A stretch of DNA of 64,000 nucleotides from a virus, in IMG/VR virus record IMGVR_UViG_3300010384_000002; one strand, given 5' to 3'. The position numbers and the translations under genes are program-made. Under the pieces are notes generated by a model, which was given only the letters and a program-made list of their open reading frames with translations, was not told the origin of the DNA and searched no databases. Positions 5,025-63,126 of the stretch are shown here, piece by piece; position 1 is the stretch's first letter, and every line of letters starts with the position of its first letter.

Positions 5025-5054
5025 AGAAAGCTCCTTTTATGGTTGAGTATGTAG

Positions 5055-9435: not shown

Positions 9436-9480
9436 GATCCCATCGTGCTGTCACGACCAGGGGCCGGGAAGGCCTCGAAA

Positions 9481-15610: not shown

Positions 15611-15616
15611 ATGGCG

Positions 15617-16168
15617 TCACGACCTGACGTACTGGAGGAGGTAAATCAGGCGTTCCAGGGCGCGCCGTGCGGTGAGGCCAGGGAGCACGCGGCCACCGGC
15701 TTTGTTCCAGAGGCAAAAGGCGTCAGCCGCCGCCTGCAGCTGGCCCCGCGTGGTGAAGCGGGCGACGGATGACACGCCGAAGGCGCCCAGGCCGATGTTA
15801 TAGGCGAGGCTCGTGCACGCGGCCGCGCGCTCGGTCTCCAGCAGGTGCAGCGCCGGGCACTTGGCGTACACCTTGGCCAAGAACAGCACCAGCTTGTGGC
15901 GCAGGCGCAGCTCGGCATATTCGGGCGTCCACACGTCGCCCTCGTTGACGCCCTCGGTTTCGCCGTAGCCGTTCGTCCAGGGCTTGCCGGACAGGCCGCG
16001 CAGGTCGGCCGGGATCTCGGCGCGGCCGGCCATGTAGGCCTTGAGCAGGCCAGCTTTGGCCAAGGCAGCGTAGAGCGGCGAGGCCGGGTCCGGGTAGGCG
16101 CGCAGCGCCAGGCCCTCGGACTGCTTGACGAGCCCCACCAGCAGCTCGAAGGCCTCGGACGGCTTCAT
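15617..16168 (-). CDS. Endolysin, lysozyme (GH24-like) family
   Basis: The real start is MKPSEAFELLVGLVKQSEGLALRAYPDP...WTNGYGETEG at ATG 16168, in an ATGA overlap with the holin stop. It has an E-D-T-like lysozyme motif with an insertion. Confidence 0.7.
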   Translation of the reverse strand: MKPSEAFELLVGLVKQSEGLALRAYPDPASPLYAALAKAGLLKAYMAGRAEIPADLRGLSGKPWTNGYGETEGVNEGDVWTPEYAELRLRHKLVLFLAKVYAKCPALHLLETERAAACTSLAYNIGLGAFGVSSVARFTTRGQLQAAADAFCLWNKAGGRVLPGLTARRALERLIYLLQYVRS

Positions 16169-19967: not shown

Positions 19968-20039
19968 GGAACGAATGATCCCGTCACGACTCAGCGCGGT
20001 GCTATTGACGAGTCCGCGCACTGCGGATTATTGTCAGGT

Positions 20040-26370: not shown

Positions 26371-26422
26371 GGCTGTATCCAGGGCTCGCGCGAATCACAT
26401 TGATCATGGCGTCACGACCATG

Positions 26423-30264: not shown

Positions 30265-30394
30265 GACGCAATCGTGCTGTCACGACTTTTGGCGCGGGGA
30301 AATTTGCAAACGAAAGGAAGGGGTAGCCAAAATTGCCGTAAGGAATCGTGGCTGTGATATTGTTCGATCCCCATGAATTTCACAGGGATAGCGC

Positions 30395-33500: not shown

Positions 33501-33873
33501 CGCCCGCCTTCTTCTTGCCCGGCGTGTGCGCCGTGACCTCGTGCCAGTGCACGCGATGCTCGCGGCCGGTGTCATCCGCCACCGTGGCGCCGTGCTCGCC
33601 GGCGGCGGACACTTCGCCCGAGCCATTGAACGCGCCGGCCGTGAACGCGACGTTGTCGCCCTCGGACACGTTGTGCGGGCCGAACTCGCCGCCGGCGGCG
33701 CAGGTCTTGAGCAGCGCCAGCAGTCCCACGAAATTCGGGTGCGACAGATCGACCTGCGGCTGCTTCGCGGCAGGCTTGTCCTGCCCCAGCTGGGCTTTGA
33801 GGTTCTTGTGGAAGTCGTCGGCCGCCTTCTTCTTGGCGCTGGGCGTGGGCAGCGCCTTGAACATCAGCATCAT
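33490..33873 (-). CDS. Hypothetical protein
   Basis: 127-aa ORF with an ATGA overlap with the portal stop. Confidence 0.55.
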   Translation of the reverse strand: MMLMFKALPTPSAKKKAADDFHKNLKAQLGQDKPAAKQPQVDLSHPNFVGLLALLKTCAAGGEFGPHNVSEGDNVAFTAGAFNGSGEVSAAGEHGATVADDTGREHRVHWHEVTAHTPGKKKAGDGK

Positions 33874-35645
33874 GGCATCAGGTCCTTGGGTTGGTAGACC
33901 GGCAGGCCGAACGCCTTGCCGAAATCGAAGTCGTTGCCGACGGCCGTCGGCGGCTCGCTGGTGGCCAGCTCCTTGGCGGCGCGCTTACCGGCGGGCGCCG
34001 GTTTGTCGTCATCGCCATCGGCGCCCTCGCCGTCGCCATCCTCCCCAGGTTGCGCAGCCTCGGGCGGCGTGATCAGGCCTTGCTGCTGCGCGCTGGCCAT
34101 GTACACCTGCATCAGGCTCGGGTTCACCGGCGCCTTGCCGATCAGCGGGTCCTCGTGCTCGGGCTGGCCATCGCGGGCGCGCATCTCGTCCACCGTCATG
34201 GTGAGCTTGCTGCGCTCGTGGCGCTTGTCCAGGTCCTCGGGGTCCAGGCCGGTGAAGCGGAACACCAGATCGGGCGAGAACTCCCCGACGACGTAGTCCG
34301 TGATCAGCTGCTGGAAGTACGACAGCAGAGGGCGCAGGCCGGAATCCTTCGAGGCGGTCAGTTTCTCCTCGGTGTCCGAGCCGGCCAGCGGGCTCGTGCT
34401 GCCGCCGCTGAACGAGTCGAAGTTGATTTCGGCCGGCGAGATCCCGTAAATCGCGCAGATCAGCGACGTGAGGAACGTCATCCACTTCGCGAAATACATC
34501 TCGTTGAACTCGACGTCGAATTTCTCGAACGAGGCCTTGCTTTTCTCGTCGGAGGAAACCATCACCGGCAGCGCCCAGGCGTTGTTCACGCCCTTGCACA
34601 TGGCATTCCAGTAGCGCTTGAAGGCGATGATGTCCTTGTCGTCGTACTTGCCGATGAGGTGCATCATCCCCTTGGGGATCGCGTTCGAGTCGAAGCCCTT
34701 GATGTTGTACGTCATGGCGTTCAGGTAGCCGGTGACGGTCTTCACCAGCAGCTCGACCTCGGAATGGCCATAGCCGGCCACCAGCACGTTGCTGCGCGGG
34801 TTGCGCGGCTCGTAGATCAGGTCGTCATGGGTGTATGGCGTGCAGATGCGGCCCTGCACCACCTGCAGGGCGAAGATGTCCGGGTTGCCTTGGTAGCCCT
34901 TGTCCGTGCACAGGCGGATCGTGGAGCCGTCGACGGCATAGAAGCCGGACACGCCCAGCTTCTTGTCGCGCTTCCATTCCACCTCGATCGCGGCCGAATC
35001 CATCGACAGCGTGTCGCGCGTGAGCTTGCCCATGAACTGGGCGAACGAGTCGCGGCCGAGCGCCTTGCGCAGGCGCGGCTTGAACTCCCAGCCGCAGTTC
35101 GAGATGAAGCGGTTCAGCTGGCGCACCTGCTCCTGCTCGGACTTCGTGAGGTGGTGGTCCTTGTCCATGTGGCGGATCTCGTAGCCGGGCAGGTCGTTGC
35201 CGCACTCGGACACCGCGCAAAAACGCTGCACCTGCCGCATGCGGGTGAGCACGACGGCCGACAGCACCGGGGTCTGATCCACGACCGCGCGCATCGAGTC
35301 GAACGACATCAGGCTGGGACGCTCCCAGTATTCCCCCTGCATGTTCAGCATGAACTCGTCGACCTGCACCGACTGCATGCCCGGCTTGCGGTTGCGCAGG
35401 TTGTTCGACGGGTACGGCACGATGTTGGCGCTCATCGCCTTGTTCACCATCAGGTGCTCGTCGGCCATGGCGAGAAAGTCGCGCAGGTGGCCCATGGGCG
35501 CCAGGTCGTTGGCGGTGGGCATATAGGCCTTTTGGAGCTCGGCAAGCGCATCGTTGCGCTCGTCCTGCGGAGCGTTCTGATTGAATGCCACCACGTCGGC
35601 GCGATCGCGCGCGCGGCCCCGGCGGCGCTGATGTTGGTCGGTCAT
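33870..35645 (-). CDS. Portal protein
   Basis: 591 aa. Size, position upstream of the MuF-like gene, and an acidic C-terminus are typical of portal proteins. It has an AGGAGG SD and a GTCGTGAC motif 32 nt upstream. Confidence 0.8.
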   Translation of the reverse strand: MTDQHQRRRGRARDRADVVAFNQNAPQDERNDALAELQKAYMPTANDLAPMGHLRDFLAMADEHLMVNKAMSANIVPYPSNNLRNRKPGMQSVQVDEFMLNMQGEYWERPSLMSFDSMRAVVDQTPVLSAVVLTRMRQVQRFCAVSECGNDLPGYEIRHMDKDHHLTKSEQEQVRQLNRFISNCGWEFKPRLRKALGRDSFAQFMGKLTRDTLSMDSAAIEVEWKRDKKLGVSGFYAVDGSTIRLCTDKGYQGNPDIFALQVVQGRICTPYTHDDLIYEPRNPRSNVLVAGYGHSEVELLVKTVTGYLNAMTYNIKGFDSNAIPKGMMHLIGKYDDKDIIAFKRYWNAMCKGVNNAWALPVMVSSDEKSKASFEKFDVEFNEMYFAKWMTFLTSLICAIYGISPAEINFDSFSGGSTSPLAGSDTEEKLTASKDSGLRPLLSYFQQLITDYVVGEFSPDLVFRFTGLDPEDLDKRHERSKLTMTVDEMRARDGQPEHEDPLIGKAPVNPSLMQVYMASAQQQGLITPPEAAQPGEDGDGEGADGDDDKPAPAGKRAAKELATSEPPTAVGNDFDFGKAFGLPVYQPKDLMP

Positions 35646-35721
35646 TGGAAATTTCCTCCTGATTCACTCACGCTACCGTCACGACCGGGCGGGGGATTGT
35701 TTCAATCAGGACAAAAAATCC

Positions 35722-38006: not shown

Positions 38007-38258
38007 ATGACGGCAGAAGAAACTCGCGAAAACGACAACGACGGCTTCCCCACGAAAGAGGAAGTGGCGGAAGCACGGCGTATCGCCGGCGTCAGCCAAG
38101 AGCGCGCGGCGCAGTTGGTGGGTCTGACGTCTCATACCCGTTGGAGCGAATACGAGCGCGGCGTCCGCCGCATGGACCCGATGCGGTTCGAGATGTTCAA
38201 GATCAAGACCGGCCAGCATCCCGACTACGTGCCCCGTGGTCAGGCCATCACCTCTTAG
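38007..38258 (+). CDS. XRE/Cro-type HTH regulator
   Basis: MTAEETREND...AGVSQERAAQLVGLTSHTRWSEYERGVRRMDPMRFEMFKIKTG. AAGGA SD 6 nt upstream. The track ORF from 37644 is over-extended. Confidence 0.75.
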   Translation: MTAEETRENDNDGFPTKEEVAEARRIAGVSQERAAQLVGLTSHTRWSEYERGVRRMDPMRFEMFKIKTGQHPDYVPRGQAITS

Positions 38259-40929
38259 GCATCCAGAAAAAGCACGCCACGTCGCGAGCGCGCACCCTTA
38301 GCTCGCGCTCCAGGCAGTACTCCGCATCCGGGTCGAAGTTCTCGCACCCGCCGCAGGTCCCCATCTCCTCCACCATCTGCTGCTGTTCCGCGATCGCCTT
38401 GACCACCGGGCTGTTCGCCACCGCGCCGGCATTGGCCGTCGCCGTTGCCGGCTTGCTCTCCTCGGGGAACAGGAACATGGTCACGCCGTGCGCGCGCGCC
38501 CAGGCCACGTTCAGCAGCATGTAGGCGTACGAAAAGTGCGGGTCGATGCCGACCTTGACCACGCGCCGCGTGTATTTCTTTTCCTCGTCGTCCTTCTCGA
38601 CCACCAGGGCGGTGCGCGTGAAGTGCATGAACACGCGGTCCTTGAGCAGTGCGATGCGCACGCGCTCGCCCTTCGTGCCCTTTTCCAGCACCTCCTGATG
38701 CAGGCCGTCCGGGTTCGGGAACACCGTCACCTTGTTCTGGATGCGCTTCATGGCGACCTGCATGCACTTGTACTGGTCGAGCATGACGCTGTAGCGGTCT
38801 CGATCCTCCTCGTCGGTTTTTCTTTCGGCGTTCGACAGCGCGGCATCACCCCACCGCATCATGTCGTCGTCAATTTTTTGATAGCCGGCCAGGAACACCT
38901 TGCCGGGGTGACGGTTGGCGAAGCGCTTGGCGTCGTTGTAGTTCGGCAGTGTCTCGACCACGCAAACAGAGATGCCGTACTGCTCCATGAGCTCGTCGCA
39001 CCGATCGAACGGGCTGGCTTCCGGGTTTTCCGGCGTGGGCTGCGTCAGGATCTCCTCGACGTGCACGATGCCCAGGTGGCCCGTGGGCATGCGAATACCG
39101 ATGATGGCGACGTTGTACCCGCCCATCTGGTCGATGCCCATGTAGGCGCCGCTCGCGCGCGCCATCCATTGCAGGCCCAGGCGCATGCCCTCGGCCGCGC
39201 AGGCGTTAAGCATTTCGAGGTTCACCGGCACCTGTGACGGGTCGGTGTACGGCTTGCCCAGCACGCGGTTCCAGAAGTTCTTGAGGTCGTCCGCGTTGTG
39301 GTACTTGGTGATGATGTTGCGCGCGCTGATCGTGGGCGACAGGAATTGCGGGAAGTGCAGCGACACCGGCAGGATCGTGCCGTCCGCATCGACCCAGCGC
39401 TGCACCTCGATGGTGTTCTTCTTGTCGGTCGCGATCGTGACCCACTGGAGCGTGCCACGATGCGCGCGCCATTCGCCAATTTGCGGATCGTCGATCCAGC
39501 CATCGCAGCTCTTGCACACGTAGCGGTATTCCCGCGTGTCGTCGTCGTACCGGATGCAGGCAGGGAAGTACGAGTCGAGCGCGTGGTGTTCGCCGCAGTT
39601 CGGGCACAGCGTCCAGAACTGGTGCATCGTGCCCTGCTTGTACAGCCAGTCGATATCCTCGTCCGGCCAGTTCGCGGTCGACCCAGCCAGGGTGAACTTG
39701 ATGCGCGAGCCCGAGAGACGTTCTTTCGTCTTCTCGATCTGCTCCTTCGTCATCTCCTGCACCTCGTCCAGGGACAGGACGTCCAGCGGGATCGATTCGG
39801 TGGCGCCCTTGCCCGAGGTCCACATGAAGTGAAAGCGCGAGCGGCCCATGACGCGCACCAGCACATTGCCCTCGCCCTTGCTGGCGCCGGTGACAGCGTC
39901 GGTGGTGAGCAGCTGGTGGGCGGCCGGGATGGTGCGCAGGATCGGCATGAAGCGAATGGAGGACTTCACGCCGGCGAGGTTCATGTCCGGCAGGTACATG
40001 CCGATCTTGCACGGCATGAACTTGATGGCCATGTAGATCATGGCCAGCATCTCCATGACGGTGAACCCGACCTGCGTGCACTTCATCATCACCACGATGC
40101 GCTCGAACGCTTCCTCGATCGTTCCGGGGATCTGGTCGTACACGAACCACATGGCCGGCCGGTTATCGAGCTCGAACGGCATGTCGTCCACTTGCAGGCC
40201 GCTGGCGGCCAGGCGCAAGCACCAGTCGCGGAACGACTCGTCGGGCCCGATGATGGCCTGTTCGTCGGTGAGCTCGATGCCGTCGACGAAGGCGCCGCAC
40301 CGTTCCTGCTGGAAGGCCTCGGGCTTCATCCGCGCGCGATCGCGCTCCAGGGCCTCCATGTCAGCGTGCGGGTTCTCCTCCGTGGCCATGTGGAACACGG
40401 CGCTGTCCCGATCATCGTCGGCCATCCGGGCCATGCGCGCGAAGTCGTTGAACATGCCGGCCGGCTTGCCGAAGAACCACGCGCGGCCACGGTATCGGGT
40501 CAGCAGCGGTTCGATCGCGTTGGCCCAGGCGTCGGCCAGCTGCTCGATGTGCGGCGCGTCGTCGACGACGACCAGGGCGAACTGGTCCCACAGCCGGAAC
40601 GGCTTGTCCATGGCCACCAGCTGGATGACGCCGCCGCCGGTGCGCAGCACGATGCGATCGCGGTCCATGCGGCTCTGCGCGGAAATCAGCGGCTCGATCA
40701 TGCCGTAGATGCGGCGCTTGACCGCGTCGACCTCGTTTTCGGAGGGCAGCAGGATGGCGACGGGGAAGCCCCGGATGGCGCCGAACTTGGACGCCAGGGC
40801 GATGTCGATGGCCAGGGTCGTCTTGCCCGAGTCAATGCCGCCGGCCACGACGTTGAAGCGCGCCGGCGACGCGGCAATCCGCGCCTGCAGGGGAGTGAGC
40901 TTGGGGAGCTTGATGCGGAGTTCAGCCAC
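38248..40929 (-). CDS. Terminase large subunit: N-terminal Terminase_6-like ATPase fused to a complete GpA-type terminase
   Basis: The first module has Walker A GGIDSGKT, Walker B LVVVDD and ...FQQERCGAFVD. It is followed by the KCTQVGFT P-loop, a CPNCGEHH...CKSCDG zinc ribbon and a nuclease region typical of lambda gpA-like terminases. The proposed start is GTG 40929 (GAGG SD). ATG 41076 would need ~49 low-GC3 codons that contain regulatory motifs. Confidence 0.75.
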   Translation of the reverse strand: MAELRIKLPKLTPLQARIAASPARFNVVAGGIDSGKTTLAIDIALASKFGAIRGFPVAILLPSENEVDAVKRRIYGMIEPLISAQSRMDRDRIVLRTGGGVIQLVAMDKPFRLWDQFALVVVDDAPHIEQLADAWANAIEPLLTRYRGRAWFFGKPAGMFNDFARMARMADDDRDSAVFHMATEENPHADMEALERDRARMKPEAFQQERCGAFVDGIELTDEQAIIGPDESFRDWCLRLAASGLQVDDMPFELDNRPAMWFVYDQIPGTIEEAFERIVVMMKCTQVGFTVMEMLAMIYMAIKFMPCKIGMYLPDMNLAGVKSSIRFMPILRTIPAAHQLLTTDAVTGASKGEGNVLVRVMGRSRFHFMWTSGKGATESIPLDVLSLDEVQEMTKEQIEKTKERLSGSRIKFTLAGSTANWPDEDIDWLYKQGTMHQFWTLCPNCGEHHALDSYFPACIRYDDDTREYRYVCKSCDGWIDDPQIGEWRAHRGTLQWVTIATDKKNTIEVQRWVDADGTILPVSLHFPQFLSPTISARNIITKYHNADDLKNFWNRVLGKPYTDPSQVPVNLEMLNACAAEGMRLGLQWMARASGAYMGIDQMGGYNVAIIGIRMPTGHLGIVHVEEILTQPTPENPEASPFDRCDELMEQYGISVCVVETLPNYNDAKRFANRHPGKVFLAGYQKIDDDMMRWGDAALSNAERKTDEEDRDRYSVMLDQYKCMQVAMKRIQNKVTVFPNPDGLHQEVLEKGTKGERVRIALLKDRVFMHFTRTALVVEKDDEEKKYTRRVVKVGIDPHFSYAYMLLNVAWARAHGVTMFLFPEESKPATATANAGAVANSPVVKAIAEQQQMVEEMGTCGGCENFDPDAEYCLERELRVRARDVACFFWMPKR

Positions 40930-40958
40930 TGGGTGCCTCTGGTAGATCGAGGCACCCA
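40930..40958 (-). promoter_or_regulatory. 10-bp perfect hairpin abutting terminase GTG 40929
   Basis: TGGGTGCCTC-N9-GAGGCACCCA then GTG. The GAGG SD lies in the 3' arm. Confidence 0.7.
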
Positions 40959-41109
40959 GTGTTGCGTCACGACTCTGATTATCAGAGGGAAGTGGCCGAA
41001 CGGACGCTGCAGGGCGGGGCTCGGACCAACTGGGCGAATTTGCGAAATGCCCCTGATTATCACGGACATTTTGCATCTAACCGACGTAACGCCTCCTCTC
41101 CCCTATAAA

Positions 41110-41315: not shown

Positions 41316-41507
41316 TCAGGCGACGTCGGCATCGTCCAGGTCGATGATCAGCACCGGGAACGCCTTCGCCAGAAGGACCTCGCCGGATTCCTCGATCGCG
41401 GTCTGCCGGTCATCCCACGTTTGCAGGCATTCGGCATCCGGGCCGCTGCCGCCGATGGTGATGGGGATGATATGCGGGCCGCGCTGGATCACTGCAATGA
41501 AGGCCAT
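41316..41507 (-). CDS. Hypothetical small protein
   Basis: MAFIAVIQRGPHIIPITIGGSGPDAECLQTWDDRQ... ATG 41507 is in an ATGA overlap. Confidence 0.5.
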   Translation of the reverse strand: MAFIAVIQRGPHIIPITIGGSGPDAECLQTWDDRQTAIEESGEVLLAKAFPVLIIDLDDADVA

Positions 41508-42361
41508 CACTCGCCCCCGCTCTCGGGCGCGCAGGCGCCGCACGGGCCGCCGTTGAACATCTGGCTGCCGCCGCAGTGTTCGCACACAGGGTCCTGATCC
41601 ACGTAACCAGGGGCGCGCGGCATGCCGTCAACCTGCTCCAACAGGTCGGCGGCCAGCTCCGGATGCGTGTCGGCGCACGCGGCCGCATAGGCGTGAATCG
41701 CCGGGATCGCGTAGGGATCATGGTTCAGGTCCAGCACGAAGTTGAGACAGCCGTGGTGCTTCCCGCCCGGCAGATCGCTGCCGTCGACGCGGTACACGAG
41801 GAACTTGTGGAACAGGCCTTGCTCCTCGGCCGGCCTGTCCAGATCGCGCTCCTGCAACTGGAACGCCTTGTCGTCCACCCGATCCTCATGGATGGCCAAC
41901 GCGACGTTGTGCGCCTCGACGAAGGCCTTGCGCTCGTCCTCGGCGCCGACCACGCGCGCCGCATTGGCTTGGCCGCGCAGCCACGCCAACAGCCGCGACA
42001 TACGGCCCTTGCATGCGCCGGCCAAGCCCGCCCACCGGCCGGATTGTTCGACGCACTGCGCCAGCTGCTGCTCCAGCTCGGCCACGCGATCGCCGGCGGC
42101 GGCGAGATCCAGGCGCGCATGCACGTGCACGGCCGAGACGAACGCCGACAGCATCTCACGCGCGTCGGTTGCGTTGACGCCGTGCAGGTAGCCGCGCAGG
42201 CCGGTGGCGCGTGCAATCTCCAGCAGCTGGACCGGGTCAGGGGCGTGATCGGCGGGCAGCTTGGCCAGGGCTTCCAGCACGTCCTCGACGTTCTCCAGGC
42301 TGGTGCGAGTGAGGCCCTTGGCCGACATCGCGGCCATTACTTTGCGGGTGGTTTCATTCAT
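41507..42361 (-). CDS. Hypothetical protein
   Basis: 284-aa ORF with a Cys-rich C-terminus (CEHCGGSQMFNGGPCGAC). Confidence 0.6.
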   Translation of the reverse strand: MNETTRKVMAAMSAKGLTRTSLENVEDVLEALAKLPADHAPDPVQLLEIARATGLRGYLHGVNATDAREMLSAFVSAVHVHARLDLAAAGDRVAELEQQLAQCVEQSGRWAGLAGACKGRMSRLLAWLRGQANAARVVGAEDERKAFVEAHNVALAIHEDRVDDKAFQLQERDLDRPAEEQGLFHKFLVYRVDGSDLPGGKHHGCLNFVLDLNHDPYAIPAIHAYAAACADTHPELAADLLEQVDGMPRAPGYVDQDPVCEHCGGSQMFNGGPCGACAPESGGE

Positions 42362-45933: not shown

Positions 45934-45985
45934 GGGTGACTCCTTCCGTTGAAGTGTTGTTCGACGGAAGGAATCATAACCGACA

Positions 45986-46002
45986 CTAACGCTAAGCGCT
46001 AG
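45986..46002. promoter_or_regulatory. Third copy of the operator palindrome
   Basis: CTAACGCTAAGCGCTAG overlaps the Nudix gene stop, upstream of gene 45229..45933. Confidence 0.5.
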
Positions 46003-46961
46003 TCTTTTTTCATATTAAGTTCATCGCCAAGCGATAGGATTTTCCGATCAACTTCCGTGTTCAGAACGGACGGCAATTGGTCCCTCGGAACGAGCTTGAC
46101 GGCCTGCGCTTCCCAGCCCATGTGCGCCGGCGAGCCGCCCACGCGCCGGGCGCGGTAGTAGCGCGCCACGGTGGTGGTGCGCTCGATGTCGCCCCAGTAG
46201 CCGGTGATTTCCACCTGCAGCCCGGTTTCCTCGAACGTCTCCTTGATGGCCACGGCTTGGAACGACAGGCCCGGCTCGTGGCGCCCCTTCGGGAACGTGG
46301 CCTCGTAGCCGCCGAACTGGTTGGTTGGGCACATGACCCACACGCGGCCGTCGGGCTCCTCGATGATGACGCCGGCGGCGCGCTCCTTGGGTTTGCCGCT
46401 CGCGGCCTTGGCCACCTTCATCAGCGGCTCGTCCAGGTCCTGCATCTGGCCGGGGACGTTGGCCCAGCCCTCGGGCGAGGTCGGCGCATCCTCCCACGGC
46501 GCGAACGCGACGCCGCCCAGCTCGGCCGGCACATCGCAATCGGGCACGAACGTGGCCACGGCCTTGGGGTCCGCCCAGGTGTCCGGAGGGCTCTGTTCGC
46601 TCGGCTCGTTGATGGTTATGGTCTCGCCCTTATCGCCCTCCTGCGGGTGCGTGATCGCATTCGGGTATTTGGGCGCCGCCGGCGCCGCATCGAACAGGTC
46701 GTCGGCCCACTTCTTGGCGGCCGGCTTGCCGCCGTACTGCGGACCGACCACGCCCTTGGGCTTCATGAACAGGGCCAGCTGCTTGCCCTTGGCGTGCACC
46801 TTCGTCTCGTGCGCGGGCACGAATGTGCCGTCGCCCTTGGTGTAGGCGGCCACGTGGGCCTTGGCCAGCGGCATGTTCATCTTGACGCTTTGCGCCATGC
46901 CGATCAGTTTGCCATCGAAGAACACGACCACCTTGCCGCTATTGATCATGCCTCCCATCAT
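45999..46961 (-). CDS. Nudix hydrolase with N-terminal extension
   Basis: The real start is MMGGMINSGK at ATG 46961 (ATGA overlap). Nudix box: GRHEPGLSFQAVAIKETFEETGL. Confidence 0.75.
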   Translation of the reverse strand: MMGGMINSGKVVVFFDGKLIGMAQSVKMNMPLAKAHVAAYTKGDGTFVPAHETKVHAKGKQLALFMKPKGVVGPQYGGKPAAKKWADDLFDAAPAAPKYPNAITHPQEGDKGETITINEPSEQSPPDTWADPKAVATFVPDCDVPAELGGVAFAPWEDAPTSPEGWANVPGQMQDLDEPLMKVAKAASGKPKERAAGVIIEEPDGRVWVMCPTNQFGGYEATFPKGRHEPGLSFQAVAIKETFEETGLQVEITGYWGDIERTTTVARYYRARRVGGSPAHMGWEAQAVKLVPRDQLPSVLNTEVDRKILSLGDELNMKKD

Positions 46962-47455
46962 GCCCCCTTGCGTTTCGCCGAGCCGGTCAGCATGCGGATC
47001 AGCTGCTGCACGCGCTGGCCCATCTTCATGTTGGCCATGTCGTCGTCGCCATCCTTGAGCGCGTCGACGACGGCCCACACGAGCCACGCATACAGGACCT
47101 GATACGGATCGTCGCCGTGCTTGGCGCGCTGGCCCTGCCAGTAGTGCCCCAGGTCCGCCTTGATGGTTTCCTGCAGGCCGCCCACGCGCGTGTTCCAGCC
47201 CTCGATCGGCAGGTACGCCGGGTTCTCGCCAGCGAAGTCGCGGGCGAACGCCGCCGCGCGCTCATGCGCACGGGCGGTCATCTCCTGCGCCTCCATCGTT
47301 CCAGCGCTGCGCGCCTTGACCCATTCCAGGATCTCGGTCAGGTAGGGCTGGACGATGCCGGCCACCACGTTCGGGTTGCCCAGGTAGTTGGGGGCCATCT
47401 GCTGCTCGAACGACGGCGGCAGATCGGTGAAACGATCGGTGCGATTTTGGTCCAT
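46958..47455 (-). CDS. Hypothetical protein
   Basis: 165-aa ORF. Confidence 0.55.
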   Translation of the reverse strand: MDQNRTDRFTDLPPSFEQQMAPNYLGNPNVVAGIVQPYLTEILEWVKARSAGTMEAQEMTARAHERAAAFARDFAGENPAYLPIEGWNTRVGGLQETIKADLGHYWQGQRAKHGDDPYQVLYAWLVWAVVDALKDGDDDMANMKMGQRVQQLIRMLTGSAKRKGA

Positions 47456-47456
47456 A

Positions 47457-50400
47457 TCACACGGTCCTTGCGAAAGATTTAACGAATATTACCACCCGCT
47501 TACGCAGAGCGGCAGTTGCTGCTGGGAAAATGACGAGCGATTTCCCCAGCTTGCCCAGGCCTCCCACCTCGGCCACATAGCCCTCGTGCGGCGGCAGCGC
47601 GAGCAGGTCCAGGGTGATACCGTCCGGGCTGGAGGCGTTGCCCTTCTTGACGCCCAGGACGACGAAGCGCTGGCCCATCAGGGTGGTCACCTCCATCTCG
47701 CCCCCGCCGTTCTTGTGCACGTAGTTGCCCTCGGCGTCTTGGCCCGAGCCGGCGAAGCGGCCCGACCCGAGCGACGCCATGGCCTTGGCGCCCTTGGCGA
47801 ACTTGATGTTCAGGTAGGCGCCCGAGCCGAATTTCGCGTTGTCGCCCCAGTCCTTGAAGATCGACGTGCACATGGAGTCAGCATTCTGGAACACCAGGCC
47901 GGCGCCCTCCTTGAGCAGTTGCTGCTTCATCGTGTCCGGCAGGTTCATCCAGCGGCCGACGGTTTCGCCCTCCTCGAACTCATAGGCCTCGTTGTAGATC
48001 GTGCTGGCCAGCTGTTGCGCGCCGCCGCTGTACGAATGGCCCTTCGAGCTGATGCTGATGGTCTTGTCGCCCTTGTTCCAGAAGCGGTTCGCTGCGCCCG
48101 AGTCCTGAATCGAGTTGACCAGGGCCTTGGTGGCCGTGGACACGCCCTGATACCACTTCTTGGCCTTGGTCACGAAATCGGTTTTGAGATAGCTGGTCTT
48201 CGGCGGGACCAGGTCCTTGACCACATCGGCGCCCACGTGGCCGAGCTTCATCCAGAAACCGATGACCTTGTCCGAGGAGATGGTGTTGATGTTCTCGCCC
48301 GGCTTGATGTAGCCGGCCGCCTCCGACACTTCCTCGATCGAGCCGCCGCCGATCGGGGGCAGGTCCAGGCCTTCAACGGGCGGGTGCGCGATCGCGGACA
48401 GCAGGTCGCACAGCGCGGCGTGGTGGTTCTTGATGTCCTTGGACGGGTGCTGTCCGATCGGCTTTTTGCCCAGGTAGGCGCCGGTTTCCTTATCGTAGGC
48501 GTCGTAGTGGTAGTCCTGCAGCGCCTTGAGATTGCCCTGCTTGGCGAACTCGATCAGGGCCGCGTCGTCGACCGTGTTCTGGTCGTTGATGTGCTTCTTG
48601 GACGACAGCGGGCCGCCCTTGCCGGGGTAGTTGTTGAAGTCGATGGGCGGCGGCAGGTCGGACGTGTTCACGGCCAGCTTGGTGATGTCTGGCGCCGGCG
48701 CGTTCCACGGGTCGGCGATGCCCAGCTTTTTCAGGATGAACTCGCGGCGCGCCACCAGCTTGGACGCCAGGGCCTCCTGCTCGGCGCGCGTGCCCGGACC
48801 GAACGTACGGCACAGCTTATCGATCTGGTTCGGGTGCATCTTGGCCAGCACGGCGCCGCCGGTCTCGAGATCCGCCGGCGTGATCTTGCCGAACACGGCG
48901 GCCGAATTCGCGTTCTTGGCCGGGTCCAGCAGCGTGTCCAGCTCGGTGACGGTTTCACCGAAGGCGTCGCCCTTCTTGCTGCCCTGCGCGCGGTAGATCA
49001 GCGAGCCGCCGACGTCGACGCGCACGGCCTTGCCGTCCTTGAGCAGCATGTTGTCGTTGGACAGGCCGACGACGTCCCAGTTGGCCAGCCACGCATCGAA
49101 CACGAACCCTTTGTGCGCGCCCTCGGCGCCGGCCAGCGCGGCCGCGTCACCCTTCGTCAGGCCATCCACCCACTTCGAGGCGATGCCCAGTTGGCCCGCG
49201 CGCTTGACCAGGCGCAGCTCGGGCACGTCGACACCCAGCATCTGGTAGAACTTCGCGGCCAGCAGCTCGTTTTTCACCGTGTCCGGATCGCTCGGGAATT
49301 TGCAGTACCACTCCTGACCCTTCGCGTCCTTGAAGCGGCCGCCGGGGTTGGAACCCTTCTGCGGCCCGGTCTGCTCCCACGTGTCCGCCACCATGGCGCT
49401 GACCTTCCCCACCTTCACGGTGGTGGGCACCGACATCGTCGGCGCGGCGCTGGCCGTCGACGCGGCAGCTGCTGGGGCTGGAGCGGCCGCCGGTGGCTCG
49501 CTGGCGCCCTTCGTGCCATCCATCGCAGCCACGAGATACTTGGCATATTTGGCCATGGCTTGCGCATTGGCGCCATAAGTCGAGCCGTCCGGGTTGATGG
49601 CCTTCCAGCCCACCGCCTTCACGTGCCCAGCTGGAGTCATCTTGACCAGCTTGGCCAAGCCCTCCGCGCCGCCGCTTTCCGCCGCCGCCTTGAGGGCCTT
49701 CATCGTCTTGGTCATCTTGATGGAGTTTTTGCCCGACAGCTTCGGCATGGGCACGCTCGCGGCTTTCTCCTTGAGCACCTTGGGATCGGTACCCATCTTG
49801 TGCCACCGGCCGTTCTCGAACACCAGCATGCCGTCGGCGCCCTGCTTCGTGTCGCCGTCCTTCGGGCCCTGCTCGGCGGCTGCCGGCGCGGTGGCGCCGC
49901 TCTGCTCGGCCTCCAGCTTCGCATACGCCTGCACCGCCCAGGCCAGCACCGGCTCGAAACCCTGCACCTCGTCGATGCCATCGATCAGCTTGCCCAGCTT
50001 CTTGGTCGACTTCTCGGCGTAGGCGGACTGGACCGCCTGCAGCGCCATCTGTGCGCCGCTGCTCAGCTGGGAGACATCGGGCAGCGGAATGTCCGCCGGC
50101 GCGGCGGGCTTGGCTTGCAGGTAGGCCAGCGCCTGCTCGCCATACGCCAGGATCAAGCCGGCGTTCGTGAACGGCGGGATCGGCTTGTCCCCGAATGGCG
50201 CCTTGAGTTCGGCAAGGGCGCTCTCGATCGTCGCGGGGATGCCCTGCTCCAGGCCCACCTCGATCGCATGCGCGTACGCATGGAGGCCGGTTATCTCGGG
50301 CTTTTCTGGCTTCGCCGGCGGCGCGGCGGGCGCGGTACCGGCCAGCGCGTGCTCGTGCAGCTGGACGAGTTTGTTTTCGGCCTTGATCGCGCTCATGTCG

Positions 50401-52634
50401 TCGTCCATGGGCAAGTCCATGTGCATCGCCAAGTCCGCCATCGCCTCGGCCTTCTCGTCAAGCCAATGATCCTCATTCGACAGCTTGAGCGCGTTCATGG
50501 CCTCGGCCTGCGCCTTCGTCGGTACCATGCCCGATCCGATCGCGGCTTTCCATCCGCCGACCAGGGCGTCCTGCTTGTCGGCATCCGACAGGCCCGGCTC
50601 AGCCGCCGGCTCGGCGCCTTCCAGGTGGGCGATAGCGGCCGTGATGTACTGGTGGATCGGCGCGAAGCTCAGCATGCCCTCGGTGGAGGCCTGCATGAGT
50701 TCCAGCTTGGCCAAGTTCCCGGTGGCGAAGTAGTGCTCGACGTCCTTGAGTACTTCGATCTTCGATGGGCTCATACCCTCCGTCGACGGCGGCACCGGAA
50801 CGCTGGCGGCCGGCGCAGCTGCTGGCGCGGGCGCGGTGGCCGGTTCCTTGACCTTGATGCTCACCACCTTGAGTTTCGGGTGCTCGCCGGCCTTCTGCCC
50901 CGGCGCCACCTGATGGCGCGAGCCCAGGAATTCCAAGGCCTCGTTGGCCAGCTTGGCGGCCTTCTTGCCGTAGGTGTTCGTGCCGTAGCTCATGGCCAGC
51001 AGCGCGTCCTTGTCGCCTGCCTGCAGCGCCGCGATGATGGCGTCCACCTTCGGGTTGAACGCCTTGGCGTTCGTGTTCGACAGCGGCACCTTGGCATCGT
51101 GGAAGGCGTCGACCAGCTGCTGCACGGCCTTGCCGTCGTCCGGCTCGGCGGTGGCGGCGGCCACCTTCGCATCGTGCGCCGGATCAGCGGCCGGCGCCGG
51201 CTCGTAGGTGGCCGCGTATTCGTCGTAGCCCAACGTGGTCAGCACCGATGCCAGCTCGGCCTCATGACCAGGATGCGCGGCGATCCATTCCTGCGCGGCC
51301 TCCTTGACCGTCTTCGGGCCGTTGGCGGCGTCTATCACGAACGCCATGGCGGGCGTATCTGCCGCCGACAGGACCCAATGCCCGTCTTTCAGCACCAGCG
51401 TGCCACCCTTGCCTTCCTTGGTGTCGCCTTCCTTCGGACCCGCGTCGACTGGCGCAACAGCGACCGGCGTCACGCCCTTCGCCTGCGCCAGCGCGGCCGC
51501 GTGCAGGTCCACCAGCAGCTTGCTGTTCACCGTCTTGCCCTTCCACGACGCCTTTTCCGGGTTCGGCATGGCCTCCAGGCCTGCGACGTCGCCGGCGGCC
51601 GCCAGGGCGATGATCTTGGCGCTCACGCCCTCGTAGTACTTCTTGACGCCGGTGGTCGTCTTGCCCTCGACGAATTCGGGGACCGTCAGGCCGGTGGTCT
51701 GCTGCGCTGCCGCTGCGGCCTCCATCTTCGGGGCCTTGATGGCGGCCGGGTCGATGTAGTCGCTCATCTGCTTCGGGTAGAAGCCATTCGCCTGCAGGTG
51801 GCCCTGCTCCTTGCTGGCCAAGTGGGCATTGATCTGGCCCTTGGCGTTCGTGGCGCCGGTGTTCAACACCCAATACTCGGTGCCGTGCGCATCGGTGAAC
51901 GTAGGCGTTCCGGCCTTCTCGTGCTTGGTGTTGTAGGCGGCCTTGGCCTCGTCCAGCTTGTCGATGGCAGCGGCCTGCTGCGCAGACAGCGTAGGCGCGG
52001 CGCTGGCGGGCTTTTCTGGCTCGGCCTTGGGCTCGACCTTCGACGCCGGCGCGGAGGCCTTGGCGGGCTCCTGCTGGGCCGGAATATTTTTCGGAATATT
52101 TTGCGGTTCGTTTTGTAGCTCGGCCGGCTTCTCATTCGCCGGCGGCTGCTTCGCCACCCAGGCGGCGTATTCCGCGTCCATCGCGGCGCCCTTGCCTGCC
52201 GCGTGCACGGCCTCGGTGATGGCCTGCTGTTTGTCCGCCGGCGCGGCGTGGAAGTGCTTCCATTCGCCCGCCGTCGGCGCCTGCCCGGCGAGCAGCTTTT
52301 TCTTGAGCGTGGCCAAGCGCGCGGCCGCCGATTCCGCGTCCTGAATCTGCGTCGCGTGATGCATGACCAGGGCGGCCTGATCCTCGGCGCTCATGCCCGC
52401 GAAGCCGGGTTCTTCCTTGAGCGCCGTATGGGCTTTCTTCTGGCTGTACGTGCCGGCGCCGCCGGCAACCTTGTGATGGTCGTGGTCATCGGAGACGTGC
52501 ACCATGGCGAAGTGGCCGCCGACCACCTGCCCGTTTTTCTTGGTGAACTGCGGAATCCAGACCTGCTTTTTGACGGTGGCTTTCAGGAAGAAAACCGGGG
52601 CACCGTAGGTGTGTGCGTGTTGGGTATCGAGCAT
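47457..52634 (-). CDS. Giant polyvalent protein: repeats + atypical protein-kinase-like domain + C-terminal ADP-ribosyltransferase
   Basis: About 1725 aa. The kinase-like region (about 48700-49370) has WYCKF, NELLAAKFY, FDAWLANWDVVGLSNDN and DVGGSL motifs. The ART R-S-E pattern is GRWMNL, DSMCTSIF and GGGEMEV (EME at 47691-47699). ATG 52634 has a GAGG SD. The track start is TTG 52640. Confidence 0.75.
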   Translation of the reverse strand: MLDTQHAHTYGAPVFFLKATVKKQVWIPQFTKKNGQVVGGHFAMVHVSDDHDHHKVAGGAGTYSQKKAHTALKEEPGFAGMSAEDQAALVMHHATQIQDAESAAARLATLKKKLLAGQAPTAGEWKHFHAAPADKQQAITEAVHAAGKGAAMDAEYAAWVAKQPPANEKPAELQNEPQNIPKNIPAQQEPAKASAPASKVEPKAEPEKPASAAPTLSAQQAAAIDKLDEAKAAYNTKHEKAGTPTFTDAHGTEYWVLNTGATNAKGQINAHLASKEQGHLQANGFYPKQMSDYIDPAAIKAPKMEAAAAAQQTTGLTVPEFVEGKTTTGVKKYYEGVSAKIIALAAAGDVAGLEAMPNPEKASWKGKTVNSKLLVDLHAAALAQAKGVTPVAVAPVDAGPKEGDTKEGKGGTLVLKDGHWVLSAADTPAMAFVIDAANGPKTVKEAAQEWIAAHPGHEAELASVLTTLGYDEYAATYEPAPAADPAHDAKVAAATAEPDDGKAVQQLVDAFHDAKVPLSNTNAKAFNPKVDAIIAALQAGDKDALLAMSYGTNTYGKKAAKLANEALEFLGSRHQVAPGQKAGEHPKLKVVSIKVKEPATAPAPAAAPAASVPVPPSTEGMSPSKIEVLKDVEHYFATGNLAKLELMQASTEGMLSFAPIHQYITAAIAHLEGAEPAAEPGLSDADKQDALVGGWKAAIGSGMVPTKAQAEAMNALKLSNEDHWLDEKAEAMADLAMHMDLPMDDDMSAIKAENKLVQLHEHALAGTAPAAPPAKPEKPEITGLHAYAHAIEVGLEQGIPATIESALAELKAPFGDKPIPPFTNAGLILAYGEQALAYLQAKPAAPADIPLPDVSQLSSGAQMALQAVQSAYAEKSTKKLGKLIDGIDEVQGFEPVLAWAVQAYAKLEAEQSGATAPAAAEQGPKDGDTKQGADGMLVFENGRWHKMGTDPKVLKEKAASVPMPKLSGKNSIKMTKTMKALKAAAESGGAEGLAKLVKMTPAGHVKAVGWKAINPDGSTYGANAQAMAKYAKYLVAAMDGTKGASEPPAAAPAPAAAASTASAAPTMSVPTTVKVGKVSAMVADTWEQTGPQKGSNPGGRFKDAKGQEWYCKFPSDPDTVKNELLAAKFYQMLGVDVPELRLVKRAGQLGIASKWVDGLTKGDAAALAGAEGAHKGFVFDAWLANWDVVGLSNDNMLLKDGKAVRVDVGGSLIYRAQGSKKGDAFGETVTELDTLLDPAKNANSAAVFGKITPADLETGGAVLAKMHPNQIDKLCRTFGPGTRAEQEALASKLVARREFILKKLGIADPWNAPAPDITKLAVNTSDLPPPIDFNNYPGKGGPLSSKKHINDQNTVDDAALIEFAKQGNLKALQDYHYDAYDKETGAYLGKKPIGQHPSKDIKNHHAALCDLLSAIAHPPVEGLDLPPIGGGSIEEVSEAAGYIKPGENINTISSDKVIGFWMKLGHVGADVVKDLVPPKTSYLKTDFVTKAKKWYQGVSTATKALVNSIQDSGAANRFWNKGDKTISISSKGHSYSGGAQQLASTIYNEAYEFEEGETVGRWMNLPDTMKQQLLKEGAGLVFQNADSMCTSIFKDWGDNAKFGSGAYLNIKFAKGAKAMASLGSGRFAGSGQDAEGNYVHKNGGGEMEVTTLMGQRFVVLGVKKGNASSPDGITLDLLALPPHEGYVAEVGGLGKLGKSLVIFPAATAALRKRVVIFVKSFARTV

Positions 52635-52681
52635 GTGCAAACCTCATGGGAGATTGCTCTACCGTACCGTCACGACAGGCG

Positions 52682-52709
52682 AAAAAAAGGCCGGCTTTGC
52701 GGGCCGGCC
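52682..52709 (-). terminator. Intrinsic terminator between the phosphatase and giant genes
   Basis: Minus-sense GGCCGGC-CCGCAAA-GCCGGCC followed by TTTTTTT. Confidence 0.85.
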
Positions 52710-52773
52710 AAAATCCAAAACTAGGGATGTCCTGAAAGAGACAGTGCTATGTTTTGGTCACGACTCCATGCGG

Positions 52774-53664
52774 TCAAGCCGCGTTCGCCAGCGCCGGCGG
52801 CCGTACCGCGTAGATGCTGCCGGTGGCCGGCTCCACGCACGTCAGGCCGTGCTGCGCGCTCGCGTTCGGGCGGCTGGCCAGGAAGGCACCCGTGTCGATG
52901 AACACGTGGCTGCCGATGCGGCCGACTTCCTGCACGATCGAGTGGCCCACGAACGTGGGCGACAGGCCCTCGTGCTTCGCCTCGTCGACCTTGCCGTCGA
53001 TGAGGTCGCGGCCCCAGGTGACGCACAGCGGCACAGGATGCGCGGTGGTGATGTTCTCCAGCGCGTCGTCCAGGGCCTCGTCAGGGCCGTGGAATTCGGC
53101 GTGGATCACGTTGAACGTGCGCACGAACTCGGTCCATTCGCCTTTCTGCACGGTCTTGCCCACGACGATGGCCAGCGGCAGTTCGGCCACCTCGGCCGCG
53201 ATGTCCAGCAACTCCTCGCGCGTGATCGTGGTGGCCCAGGCGCCGCCCTGCTGAATCCACGCCTGCCAGTTGAAATTCGGCTGGCACGCGGCATCGAGAA
53301 TGTACTGCTCGTGATTGCCGGCCACCGCCTTGAACCACGGCTCACGGATCAGCGCGAGGCACTTGAGCGAGTCAGGTCCGCGGTCGCCCAGGTCTCCCAC
53401 GGAGAACATGCGATCGCGCTCCTTATCGAAGCTGATCTTGTCCAGCAGCTGCATGAACAGGCCATAGCAGCCGTGCAGGTCGCCCACGACGAAATCGCGG
53501 CCCTCGGTATTTTCTTCGTATCGTTTCAACAGGTTCAACGGTTCAGCTCCGATAGGTGCCGCCGGCGGCGTCTCGGCCTCCTGCTTGGCCGCGAACGCGC
53601 GCGGGTCGGACAGGGCAGCGGCGCAGGCCACGGCGATCAGGGATGGTTTCAGGATGCGGTTCAT
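52774..53664 (-). CDS. Ser/Thr protein phosphatase (lambda PPase-like metallophosphoesterase) with Sec signal peptide
   Basis: The real start is MNRILKPSLIAVACAAALSDPRAFA-AK at ATG 53664. Motifs GDLHGC, GDLGDRG and GNHE. The track ORF to 54264 is over-extended. Confidence 0.75.
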   Translation of the reverse strand: MNRILKPSLIAVACAAALSDPRAFAAKQEAETPPAAPIGAEPLNLLKRYEENTEGRDFVVGDLHGCYGLFMQLLDKISFDKERDRMFSVGDLGDRGPDSLKCLALIREPWFKAVAGNHEQYILDAACQPNFNWQAWIQQGGAWATTITREELLDIAAEVAELPLAIVVGKTVQKGEWTEFVRTFNVIHAEFHGPDEALDDALENITTAHPVPLCVTWGRDLIDGKVDEAKHEGLSPTFVGHSIVQEVGRIGSHVFIDTGAFLASRPNASAQHGLTCVEPATGSIYAVRPPALANAA

Positions 53665-53831
53665 TCGGGACACTTCTCGCAAAAGGGGGCGGTAACGGGG
53701 TTCTTGTGGTTGCAGGTAGCGCAGGTCCAGCCGGGCCGCGCCAGCAGCTGGGCGGCCGGGTGAGCCTTGGCCAGCTGCTCGCGCTCGGGCGCCGGCGCGG
53801 CGGCCGGCTCGATGGCATTGATGTCGAGCAT
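53661..53831 (-). CDS. 56-aa RanBP2-type zinc-finger protein (not in ORF track)
   Basis: Hand translation: MLDINAIEPAAAPAPEREQLAKAHPAAQLLARPGWTCATCNHKNPVTAPFCEKCPE. It fits W-x-C-x2-C-x3-N-x6-C-x2-C exactly. ATGA overlaps at both ends, and high GC3. Confidence 0.65.
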   Translation of the reverse strand: MLDINAIEPAAAPAPEREQLAKAHPAAQLLARPGWTCATCNHKNPVTAPFCEKCPE

Positions 53832-54912: not shown

Positions 54913-54997
54913 GGGGTGTTACTCCTGTTGGTGGTGAAGATCAGGAGCAACTTTGGCGTCACGACTTTTGTTCCGGCCGTTTTTGCGTACGCGGACC

Positions 54998-62919: not shown

Positions 62920-62925
62920 GTGGCG

Positions 62926-63126
62926 TCACGACTTTTGCCAGGGATGGCTTTTCGCTTCCTCTTTCACGATGGCCATGGCCTCGGCCGCCGACTTGCCGTT
63001 GATCCGGATCAGCTGCTTCATGCGCGTGACCATCCACGCCACCTCATCGGCTGGGATGCCGGCCAGCTCGCCCAGCATCGCCACGCCGTTGTATGTGCCG
63101 TCGCCATTGGCCCAGCGCTCGATCAT
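62926..63126 (-). CDS. Hypothetical protein
   Basis: 66-aa ORF. Its stop TGA lies inside a GTCGTGAC motif. Confidence 0.5.
   Translation of the reverse strand: MIERWANGDGTYNGVAMLGELAGIPADEVAWMVTRMKQLIRINGKSAAEAMAIVKEEAKSHPWQKS

Follow-up and report, generated by a model that had tools for sequence, protein, structure and literature searches.

Four neighbouring genes on the minus strand of a 64,000-nt stretch of viral DNA (IMG/VR record IMGVR_UViG_3300010384_000002; the whole stretch is referred to below as the window) encode a lambda-type Ser/Thr phosphatase, a giant protein of 1725 amino acids (aa) with kinase-like and ADP-ribosyltransferase (ART) domains, a 165-aa protein (p165) and a Nudix hydrolase. 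A preliminary description of the window proposed that these genes represent two modification chemistries, each accompanied by an enzyme that could reverse or process its product. Do they form such a set of writers and erasers, or a system of another kind? Judging from gene order, linkage in relatives, predicted folds and shared motifs, we give somewhat better than even chances to the reading that the giant, p165 and the Nudix protein constitute a co-delivered effector module of the polyvalent-protein class, probably carried in the virion as T4 Alt is, and not a two-chemistry writer/eraser set.

A three-gene operon upstream of the terminase gene

All four open reading frames (ORFs) were found where the preliminary description had placed them, and its reports of translationally coupled genes, of a terminator and of GTCGTGAC motifs were confirmed by coordinates and sequence. 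The genes and signals are as follows.

52774..53664, minus strand: NinI/lambda-type Ser/Thr phosphatase (profile matches), last gene of the upstream operon and outside the module
52757-52764, minus strand: second copy of GTCGTGAC, lying before the terminator
52689..52709, minus strand: intrinsic terminator of the upstream phosphatase-containing operon, GGCCGGC-CCGCAAA-GCCGGCC followed by TTTTTTT
52669..52676, minus strand: promoter-like motif GTCGTGAC, 35 nt upstream of the giant ATG
47457..52634, minus strand: giant polyvalent protein, 1725 aa, first gene of the operon (ORF and translation)
46958..47455, minus strand: p165, all-alpha, translationally coupled on both sides
45999..46961, minus strand: Nudix hydrolase protein, 320 aa (PF00293)

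The module is a three-gene operon in the order giant, p165 and Nudix protein, located about 6.4 kb upstream of the gene for the large terminase (TerL) on the same strand, and the portal, sheath and baseplate genes are found further on beyond TerL. The giant ATG at 52634 has GAGG 7 nt upstream, the giant stop codon (47457-47459) is 1 nt away from the p165 ATG (47455), and the p165 stop and the Nudix ATG overlap as ATGA (46958-46961). The terminator hairpin (7 bp, all GC, with a tail of seven T) stands directly 3' of the phosphatase stop, with one copy of GTCGTGAC on each side. Overlaps of the TGATG and ATGA kind couple the phosphatase gene to three ORFs upstream of it, and this terminator follows it; the gene thus closes an operon other than that of the giant.

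Linkage was counted in a total of 74 non-redundant loci. They comprise those retained from a scan of IMG/VR, in which 322 sequences related to the kinase-ART core were found, together with the GenBank relatives and two further contigs. All six GenBank relatives (6/6) encode, upstream of TerL, a giant often annotated as 'ADP-ribosyltransferase', a protein of about 160 aa and a Nudix protein, and the two metagenomic or genomic contigs have the same gene order. A Nudix homologue was located within 3 kb downstream of the giant, or fused to it, in 51 of the 65 informative loci, and the same was true for 39 of the 41 loci that also hold TerL. The slot of p165 is occupied by an ORF of 120-180 aa in 65 of 67 loci; all 56 distinct slot sequences were reached by jackhmmer from the window p165, and they form a single family. 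The triad of giant, approximately 160-aa protein and Nudix protein is near-invariant next to TerL. Among the bacterial-genome loci, a Nudix protein was found near the kinase in 22 of 79.

The phosphatase gene behaves differently. In 12 of the 74 loci it was detected within 10 kb on either side of the giant, its position varying from upstream of the giant in some loci to the vicinity of TerL in others. It was directly adjacent upstream of the giant in 1 of 57 loci, and of the 79 bacterial-genome loci a single one has it near the kinase. The co-occurrence in relatives that had been proposed as a check on the cluster was therefore observed for the giant, p165 and the Nudix protein, but not for the phosphatase. 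The identification of the enzyme itself was clear, with a Pfam Metallophos score of 41 bits (cut-off 21.5), a match to PHROG 246 'NinI-like' (E=9e-50), matches to the NCBIfam PrpA and PrpB models (6e-29 and 5e-24, respectively) and the motifs GDLHG, GDLGDRG and GNHE all present. All three metallophosphatase motifs are shared with the lambda phosphatase/NinI and with E. coli PrpA and PrpB; unlike these, the window protein has a signal-peptide-like extension of about 45 aa, and no conserved link with a kinase is found. The family occurs in 1,260 phage records, mostly of lambdoid and other phages lacking the giant, and Bordetella phage PHB04 carries the phosphatase in the absence of the giant.

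The first 25 residues of the phosphatase resemble a signal peptide (MNRILKP, then SLIAVACAAAL, then an AFA|A site). This extension is present only here and in the closest relative, and most homologues start about 12 residues before GDxHG. The export noted in the preliminary description, suggested solely by this N-terminus, would be unusual if real, and would place the enzyme in a compartment other than that of a cytoplasmic kinase. Membership of the phosphatase in the operon was rejected, because it belongs to a separate transcription unit behind a terminator and its linkage is not conserved. The unlinked phosphatase removes the attractive story of two writers and two erasers, and the proposal of a phosphatase opposing the kinase within one cluster is not supported.

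Just upstream, an ORF of 56 aa (53661-53831, minus strand), below the 60-aa cut-off for ORFs, is overlap-coupled to the preceding ORF (TGATG) and to the phosphatase gene (ATGA). It ends in a zinc-ribbon-like sequence, W-T-C-A-T-C-N-x9-F-C-E-K-C, and gave no Pfam match.

The giant protein with kinase-like and ADP-ribosyltransferase domains

What, then, does the giant protein contain? Its conserved parts are located as follows.

52485..52607, minus strand: N-terminal shared motif, aa 10-50 (PVFFLKATVKKQVWIPQFTKKNGQVVGGHFAMVHV), conserved at giant N-termini
51459-51683, 50904-51092, 49494-49757 and 48375-48647, minus strand: helical repeats
48675..49388, minus strand: predicted HipA/CtkA-like Ser/Thr kinase domain, aa 1083-1320 (AF2 model and Foldseek)
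47580..48272, minus strand: predicted C-terminal R-S-E-type ART domain, aa approximately 1455-1685 (Foldseek)

Sequence profiles recognized neither enzyme. For the kinase, the only Pfam signal was HipA_C at 13.9-16.2 bits against a cut-off of 30.5, and for the ART no family match was obtained in Pfam, PHROGs or NCBIfam (PF03496, PF01129 and PF18760 included), either with the whole protein or with segments. Comparison of the kinase/ART core with the PDB by sequence, using both a single sequence and a profile, gave nothing relevant, the sole match being the WGR domain found in homologues. The region of aa 1076-1690 was then modelled with AlphaFold (AF2) from an alignment with 36 homologues (37 sequences), giving a mean predicted local distance difference test score (pLDDT) of 88.9. 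In the Foldseek comparison of this model with the PDB, the ART domain matched the ARTs C3, VIP2, CDTa and iota Ia (E about 2e-6, probability 1.0, TM score about 0.6 per target), with E=2.3e-6 for VIP2 (1qs2) and E=3.3e-6 for C3bot, while the kinase domain matched CtkA of H. pylori (3akl_A; E=7.6e-6, probability 1.0, TM score 0.54 per target), a HipA-like kinase.

The residues expected of such enzymes are conserved. The kinase motifs are GSNPGG (1094-1099), K1112, E1123, D1180-x4-N1185-x-D1187 and R1205-x-D1207-GG, in which GSNPGG, K1112, E1123, D1180, N1185, D1187 and D1207 are invariant or nearly so in the 37 sequences; by analogy, these would represent the Gly-rich loop, the ATP-binding Lys, the catalytic D-x4-N and the Mg-binding Asp. 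The putative ART motifs are R1561, S1587-M-C-T-S1591 and E1646-M-E1648, in which M1588, C1589, S1591, E1646 and E1648 are invariant. On the basis of fold and motifs, and not of curated sequence models, the giant does combine kinase-like and ART domains, and the assignment made in the preliminary description was borne out at this level.

Besides the fold match to 3akl, the window kinase shares with HipA and CtkA the D-x4-N loop and the downstream D-x-G, with a HipA-like spacing (D309, N314 and D332 in HipA), and CtkA is likewise encoded on a mobile element, the conjugative element ICEHptfs. The differences are an identity of only 14%, the sub-threshold HipA_C score, the lack of a HipB-type antitoxin and the embedding of the domain in a giant protein. 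An exhaustive HMMER search identified 4,828 cluster representatives of the kinase domain, mostly in proteins of 1,000-7,000 aa and sometimes in 2-5 copies per giant protein; the family has no Pfam model. This abundant and uncurated family links phage giants to the kinase of a Helicobacter conjugative element.

The best structural matches to the window ART, C3, VIP2, CDTa and iota Ia, share the arrangement of Arg, S-x-S and E-x-E. They differ from it in an identity of 11-18%, in the STS motif, which reads S-M-C-T-S in the window, in the failure of PF03496 and PF01129 to match, and in the target, which for the window ART would be a protein of the bacterial host and not of a eukaryote. The R-S-ExE-type fold and motifs are shared also with T4 Alt, which is, in addition, a myovirus protein encoded among late or virion genes with a proposed role in host modification within the first minute; Alt is packaged in the T4 virion and enters the cell along with the DNA. 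No sequence similarity to Alt was detectable, the window ART occupies the C-terminus of a multi-enzyme chain of 1725 aa that also contains a kinase, and the capsid-targeting sequence and gp21 processing of T4 are not evident in the giant.

Homologues of the giant include 107 proteins of 1000-2500 aa, many of them on contigs of 85-98 kb. Some carry the Pfam domains ADPrib_exo_Tox, ART-PolyVal or WGR, as well as InPase and LPD domains; a canonical PF03496 ART at the same position is confined to homologues whose C-terminal variant differs from that of the window protein. These features are in agreement with the polyvalent proteins described by Iyer, Burroughs, Anand, de Souza and Aravind in 2017 (PMC5512222), including P1 DarB with its packaging helpers Dar/Hdf/DdrA: a very large phage protein joins unrelated effector enzymes in one chain, stands beside virion and packaging genes, has small partner genes, and has homologues with ART-PolyVal, WGR and LPD-type domains. 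Two differences were noted. The window kinase has a HipA/CtkA fold, whereas the 2017 study described a truncated Ser/Thr/Tyr-kinase clade from prophages of Verrucomicrobia and Bacteroidetes, with HipA unmentioned; membership of the window kinase in that clade was considered and rejected. The window giant also lacks a MuF, MPTase or portal fusion, and its packaging is a prediction.

In the giant, the two enzymes stand at the C-terminal end of a long and repetitive N-terminal part. Two further conserved elements were observed. A helical module of about 60-90 aa is present four times (aa 318-392, 515-577, 960-1047 and 1330-1420), with a core such as 'AL.AGD..AL.AM', and the motif 'GPK-[ED]-GDTK-x-G-x3-L-V-x3-G-[HR]-W' is present twice, at aa 398-424 (51363-51443) and 922-948 (49791-49871), and this second motif is at least 90% conserved among giant homologues. 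Neither element matches a Pfam family.

The kinase domain was also found in giants of bacterial genomes, up to about 5,700 aa, on chromosomes or large contigs of Streptomyces, Nonomuraea, Endozoicomonas (several copies), Dehalococcoidia and others, and in smaller proteins of about 550-760 aa in loci of the P. syringae group. The complete kinase-ART-Nudix-TerL arrangement is present in large contigs of Microvirga, Geminicoccus and a Burkholderiaceae metagenome-assembled genome, which suggests the existence of prophage or episomal forms of this phage group.

The Nudix protein and p165

Is the Nudix enzyme an eraser of the ART product, or a partner of the giant? Its parts are given below, a conserved middle region lying between the two.

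46788-46928, minus strand: shared motif, aa 12-58
46038-46388, minus strand: Nudix domain, aa 192-308

The Nudix identity was unambiguous (PF00293, 48.6 bits against a cut-off of 21.1), although PHROGs gives the protein only the generic label 'nudix hydrolase'; the N-terminal region had no significant match in Pfam, PHROGs or NCBIfam. The Nudix box, G226-x5-L232-x7-K240-E241-x2-E244-E245-x-G247 (G-x5-L-x7-K-E-T-F-E-E-T-G-L), departs from the canonical G-x5-E-x7-R-E-U-x-E-E-x-G-U by having L for the first E and K for R. The three catalytic Glu residues are retained, the K, E, E, E and G positions are at least 90% conserved in 62 sequences, and the L/K pattern is family-wide. The nearest solved relatives of the domain are Ap4A and Ap6A hydrolases, the best being the Ap4A hydrolase of Aquifex (3i7u, 5e-8), and not ADP-ribose pyrophosphatases (ADPRases). 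The residue at position +16 after the box is Thr264; a conserved Pro about 16 residues after the box is said to mark ADPRases, as Dunn et al. reportedly described in 1999. A role specific to ADP-ribose (ADPR) is unsupported by these sequence features. The window protein shares the Nudix fold and the catalytic E-x2-E-E with the ApnA hydrolases (Aquifex 3i7u and Thermus Ndx1) and with T4 NudE, and differs from them in its N-terminal extension of about 190 aa with the shared motif, in its non-canonical box, and in the kinase fusions of its relatives. A further copy of the giant's kinase domain is appended to the C-terminus of the Nudix protein in at least nine relatives, and in one other the Nudix domain lies inside the giant.

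These observations bear on the proposal of a writer/eraser set for self-immunity or timing, in which the phosphatase would reverse the kinase, and the Nudix protein, perhaps with p165, would reverse or process the ART product, so that the phage or the cell producing it would be spared until the proper time. Certain Nudix enzymes, NUDT16 and RppH among them, can shorten protein-linked ADP-ribose to phosphoribose. The four enzyme types are truly present and adjacent in the window, the ART and Nudix genes are translated together and conserved together, and immunity proteins are usually encoded in just this way, by a small gene closely coupled to that of a preceding toxin-like enzyme. An ART directly upstream of small co-translated genes is seen also in DarT-DarG, Tre1-Tri1 and DraT-DraG. 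The module, however, contains no macro or ADP-ribosylhydrolase (ARH)-type eraser, the Nudix protein is not recognised as an enzyme that removes ADP-ribose fully from proteins, and the partner genes have features of delivery rather than of an antidote. The likeness to Ap4A/Ap6A hydrolases, the fusion to the kinase instead of an opposition to the ART, and the N-terminal motif in common with the giant indicate that the Nudix protein fits co-deployed cargo better than an antidote. Together with a phosphatase of a generic family in another operon, these points make a writer/eraser set quite unlikely; of the proposed couplings, that of ART and Nudix stands as a genetic linkage, and that of kinase and phosphatase does not.

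Another explanation, already raised in part in the preliminary description, is that the module, or at least its Nudix protein, mainly counters nucleotide-based immunity by degrading NAD-derived or dinucleotide signals (messengers of the Thoeris or CBASS type, or Ap4A-type alarmones) or decaps NAD- or Np4-capped RNAs, the kinase and ART inactivating defence proteins. Such a function would agree with the conserved catalytic glutamates of the Nudix domain and its relationship to dinucleoside-polyphosphate hydrolases, and it could be combined with delivery in the virion. Comparative genomics has led to the proposal that Nudix, Macro and NADAR proteins of phages counter ADPR-derived signals and are deployed at entry (PMC9503650). 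On the other hand, no likeness to a characterised anti-defence enzyme was found beyond the generic PHROGs label, the window shows no defence-specific context, and no Nudix-based anti-Thoeris or anti-CBASS precedent was found in the literature. We regard counter-defence as unlikely to be the main function of the module or of its Nudix protein; some anti-signal role of the Nudix enzyme is possible.

The AF2 model of p165 is all-alpha with a pLDDT of 82.5. The protein has no structural neighbour in the PDB (best E=2.2), only same-sized uncharacterised phage proteins in BFVD, and no significant match in Pfam, PHROGs or NCBIfam, so that neither an immunity nor a chaperone nor an enzyme role can be assigned to it.

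Possible virion delivery and the phage context

How might such proteins act together? A related motif of about 30 aa opens both the giant (PVFFLKATVKKQVWIPQFTKKNGQVVGGH) and the Nudix protein (AKAHVAAYTKGDGTFVPAH), with the consensus [LF]LFLKA / LLKSH-V-x2-[YF]-T-R-K-D-G-x2-V-x2-H. A hidden Markov model of this motif gave 89 matches in the loci, nearly all N-terminal, and none on reversed sequences, and hhalign aligned the motif profiles of the giant and the Nudix protein with a probability of 96.2% (P=2.4e-9). The motif also heads several other small uncharacterised proteins encoded between the module and TerL, in one of which Pfam detected DUF6900 and nothing else. We consider the motif to be a candidate tag for virion loading or partner binding. 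A bolder proposal is that it is a portable signal for virion loading and ejection, read by p165 and carrying interchangeable cargo in myoviruses of about 90 kb, the cargo being the kinase-ART giant, Nudix or Nudix-kinase proteins and other TerL-adjacent proteins, with the kinase family as a main payload. This we put forward tentatively, as a doubtful extension; if true, delivery by the motif and p165 would be a modular system distinct from the capsid-targeting sequence of T4 and from MuF fusions.

The favoured reading, an effector module delivered with the particle, may be set out as follows. All three proteins would be synthesized at the same time as those of the virion, the giant and its Nudix partner entering the particle via the shared N-terminal motif with p165 as assembly partner, and would be released with the DNA into the next host cell. 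There the kinase would phosphorylate and the ART mono-ADP-ribosylate host proteins, the latter on arginine by analogy, while the Nudix protein would cleave a substrate of dinucleotide type, with ApnA, NpnN- or NAD-type RNA caps and NAD/ADPR-derived molecules as candidates. The combined outcome would be host takeover within the first minute, or counter-defence. In this scheme the gene order, the coupling, the folds, the conservation of catalytic residues and of synteny, the domain fusions and the shared motif have been shown; the enzymatic activities and their targets, the late timing, the packaging and the ejection are inferred. Polyvalent proteins have been predicted to be packaged and injected (PMC5512222), and for myoviruses a frequent presence of ARTs and Nudix proteins in the virion is likewise predicted, with T4 Alt as the experimental precedent (PMC9503650).

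GTCGTGAC is about 5-fold over-represented in the window: it occurs 14 times where 3.0 copies are expected, and none of 100 shuffles contained as many. Of these copies, 12 lie on the coding strand, most of them 15-46 nt ahead of an operon start, portal and tail operons among them. With its flanks the consensus reads GTCGTGAC-RSC-AYGAT, and the element is probably a phage-specific promoter or 5'-leader element. Its positions are as follows.

Minus strand: 5054-5061, 9450-9457, 15616-15623, 19983-19990, 26411-26418, 30279-30286, 35678-35685, 40966-40973, 52669-52676, 52757-52764, 54958-54965 and 62925-62932
Plus strand: 1182-1189 and 17525-17532

By eye, a perfect hairpin follows several of these copies, for example those ending at 15623, 40973 and 62932.

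Among the relatives, the record of Yersinia phage fHe-Yen8-01 labels the three orthologues of the module as particle-associated. The use of this label as strong proof of packaging was rejected, because it spans about 40% of the proteome (approximately 55 of 136 proteins, among which are primase, methyltransferases and terminase); the support that it lends is weak.

Several points weigh against virion delivery. Packaging in this phage is a prediction, the fHe-Yen8-01 label is broad, and no paper on virion mass spectrometry was found in the literature for fHe-Yen8-01, Dolphis or PHB04. Profile searches detected no MuF, portal or other known head-targeting domain in the giant. GTCGTGAC precedes the phosphatase operon and others as well, so that it does not prove late timing of the module. 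As to the enzymes, no ART or kinase profile scores above threshold in the giant, the 'R' position of the ART is R or K within the family and K in many homologues, the Nudix box is non-canonical, and p165 has no assigned function.

Part of the same evidence would fit proteins that are not packaged and act late in the producing cell, on the packaging and assembly machinery or on host factors, in a superinfection block, or against defences sensing terminase or portal. The adjacency to TerL and the shared promoter-like motif point to co-expression with morphogenesis genes and not to packaging as such, no known capsid-targeting domain was detected, and this alternative has been stated for ARTs encoded beside packaging genes (PMC9503650). 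Against it, the large size and the repetitive build of the giant are those of polyvalent proteins, otherwise unrelated cargo proteins have the N-terminal motif in common, the fHe-Yen8-01 orthologues are particle-associated by label (weak evidence), and T4 Alt and P1 DarB are precedents for packaging. Late action in the producing cell is, on balance, improbable.

The general idea of packaged effectors is already published, phage Nudix proteins in virions have been predicted (PMC9503650), and GenBank labels orthologues of the giant as ADP-ribosyltransferases. The HipA/CtkA-like kinase as a polyvalent payload, the strict triad, the Nudix-kinase fusions and the shared N-terminal motif appear to be undescribed in the sources searched. 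If the module is virion-delivered, phosphorylation, ADP-ribosylation and pyrophosphate hydrolysis would strike the host before phage gene expression, extending the T4 Alt paradigm, and the module would offer a tractable experimental example of the largely computational concept of polyvalent proteins. The shared motif and the obligatory small partner suggest a testable loading mechanism, which might be reused to package foreign proteins in phage particles.

The window (about 65% GC, nearly all coding on the minus strand) belongs to a myovirus of the approximately 90-kb type, in which the following virion genes, together with baseplate proteins, were identified by PHROGs and Pfam.

38248-41076, minus strand: large terminase (TerL)
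33870-35645, minus strand: portal
17164-18882: tail sheath

In phage and plasmid collections the region had no nucleotide-level match by megablast, so that relatives were sought at the protein level. The window TerL is 44-50% identical to the TerLs of myoviruses of about 86-95 kb, including Aeromonas phage ST4, Pseudomonas phages Dolphis, Jeremy and Touem01, Yersinia phage fHe-Yen8-01, Escherichia phage ECML-606-1, Enterobacter phage phiT5282EW, Morganella phage Mecenats66 and Bordetella phage PHB04. The paper on Mecenats66 does not discuss the module ORFs, and reports that the small terminase was not located in this phage group.

45229..45933, minus strand: conserved follower gene after the Nudix gene

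This follower gene is present after the Nudix gene in 6/6 GenBank relatives and in most metagenomic (IMG/VR) loci. Its N-terminal region of about 115 aa is better conserved than the neighbours (52-68% identity), and its family comprises 252 clusters, all unnamed. Members are found beside kinase-bearing giants even where the Nudix gene is absent, including 28 of the 79 bacterial-genome loci, and directly upstream of TerL in three loci. Speculatively, the family is possibly the small terminase, or otherwise related to packaging. Between the Nudix stop and the ATG of this gene (45934-45998, minus strand), an 8-bp inverted repeat (CCTTCCGT ... ACGGAAGG) was observed, the 3' arm of which holds the Shine-Dalgarno sequence of the downstream gene (GGAAGGAG); it may form a hairpin for translational control.

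The TerL ORF as listed (942 aa) is probably too long at its 5' end, and the true start is likely near 40925, because relatives align only from about residue 50, and a copy of GTCGTGAC (40966-40973) and a perfect hairpin are located within the first 35 or so codons. The gene directly upstream of TerL (41507-42361, minus strand) gave no Pfam match and matched PHROG 9572 'sulfatase-modifying factor enzyme' over residues 170-247 (E=4e-23), a function of this kind being an odd neighbour for packaging genes.

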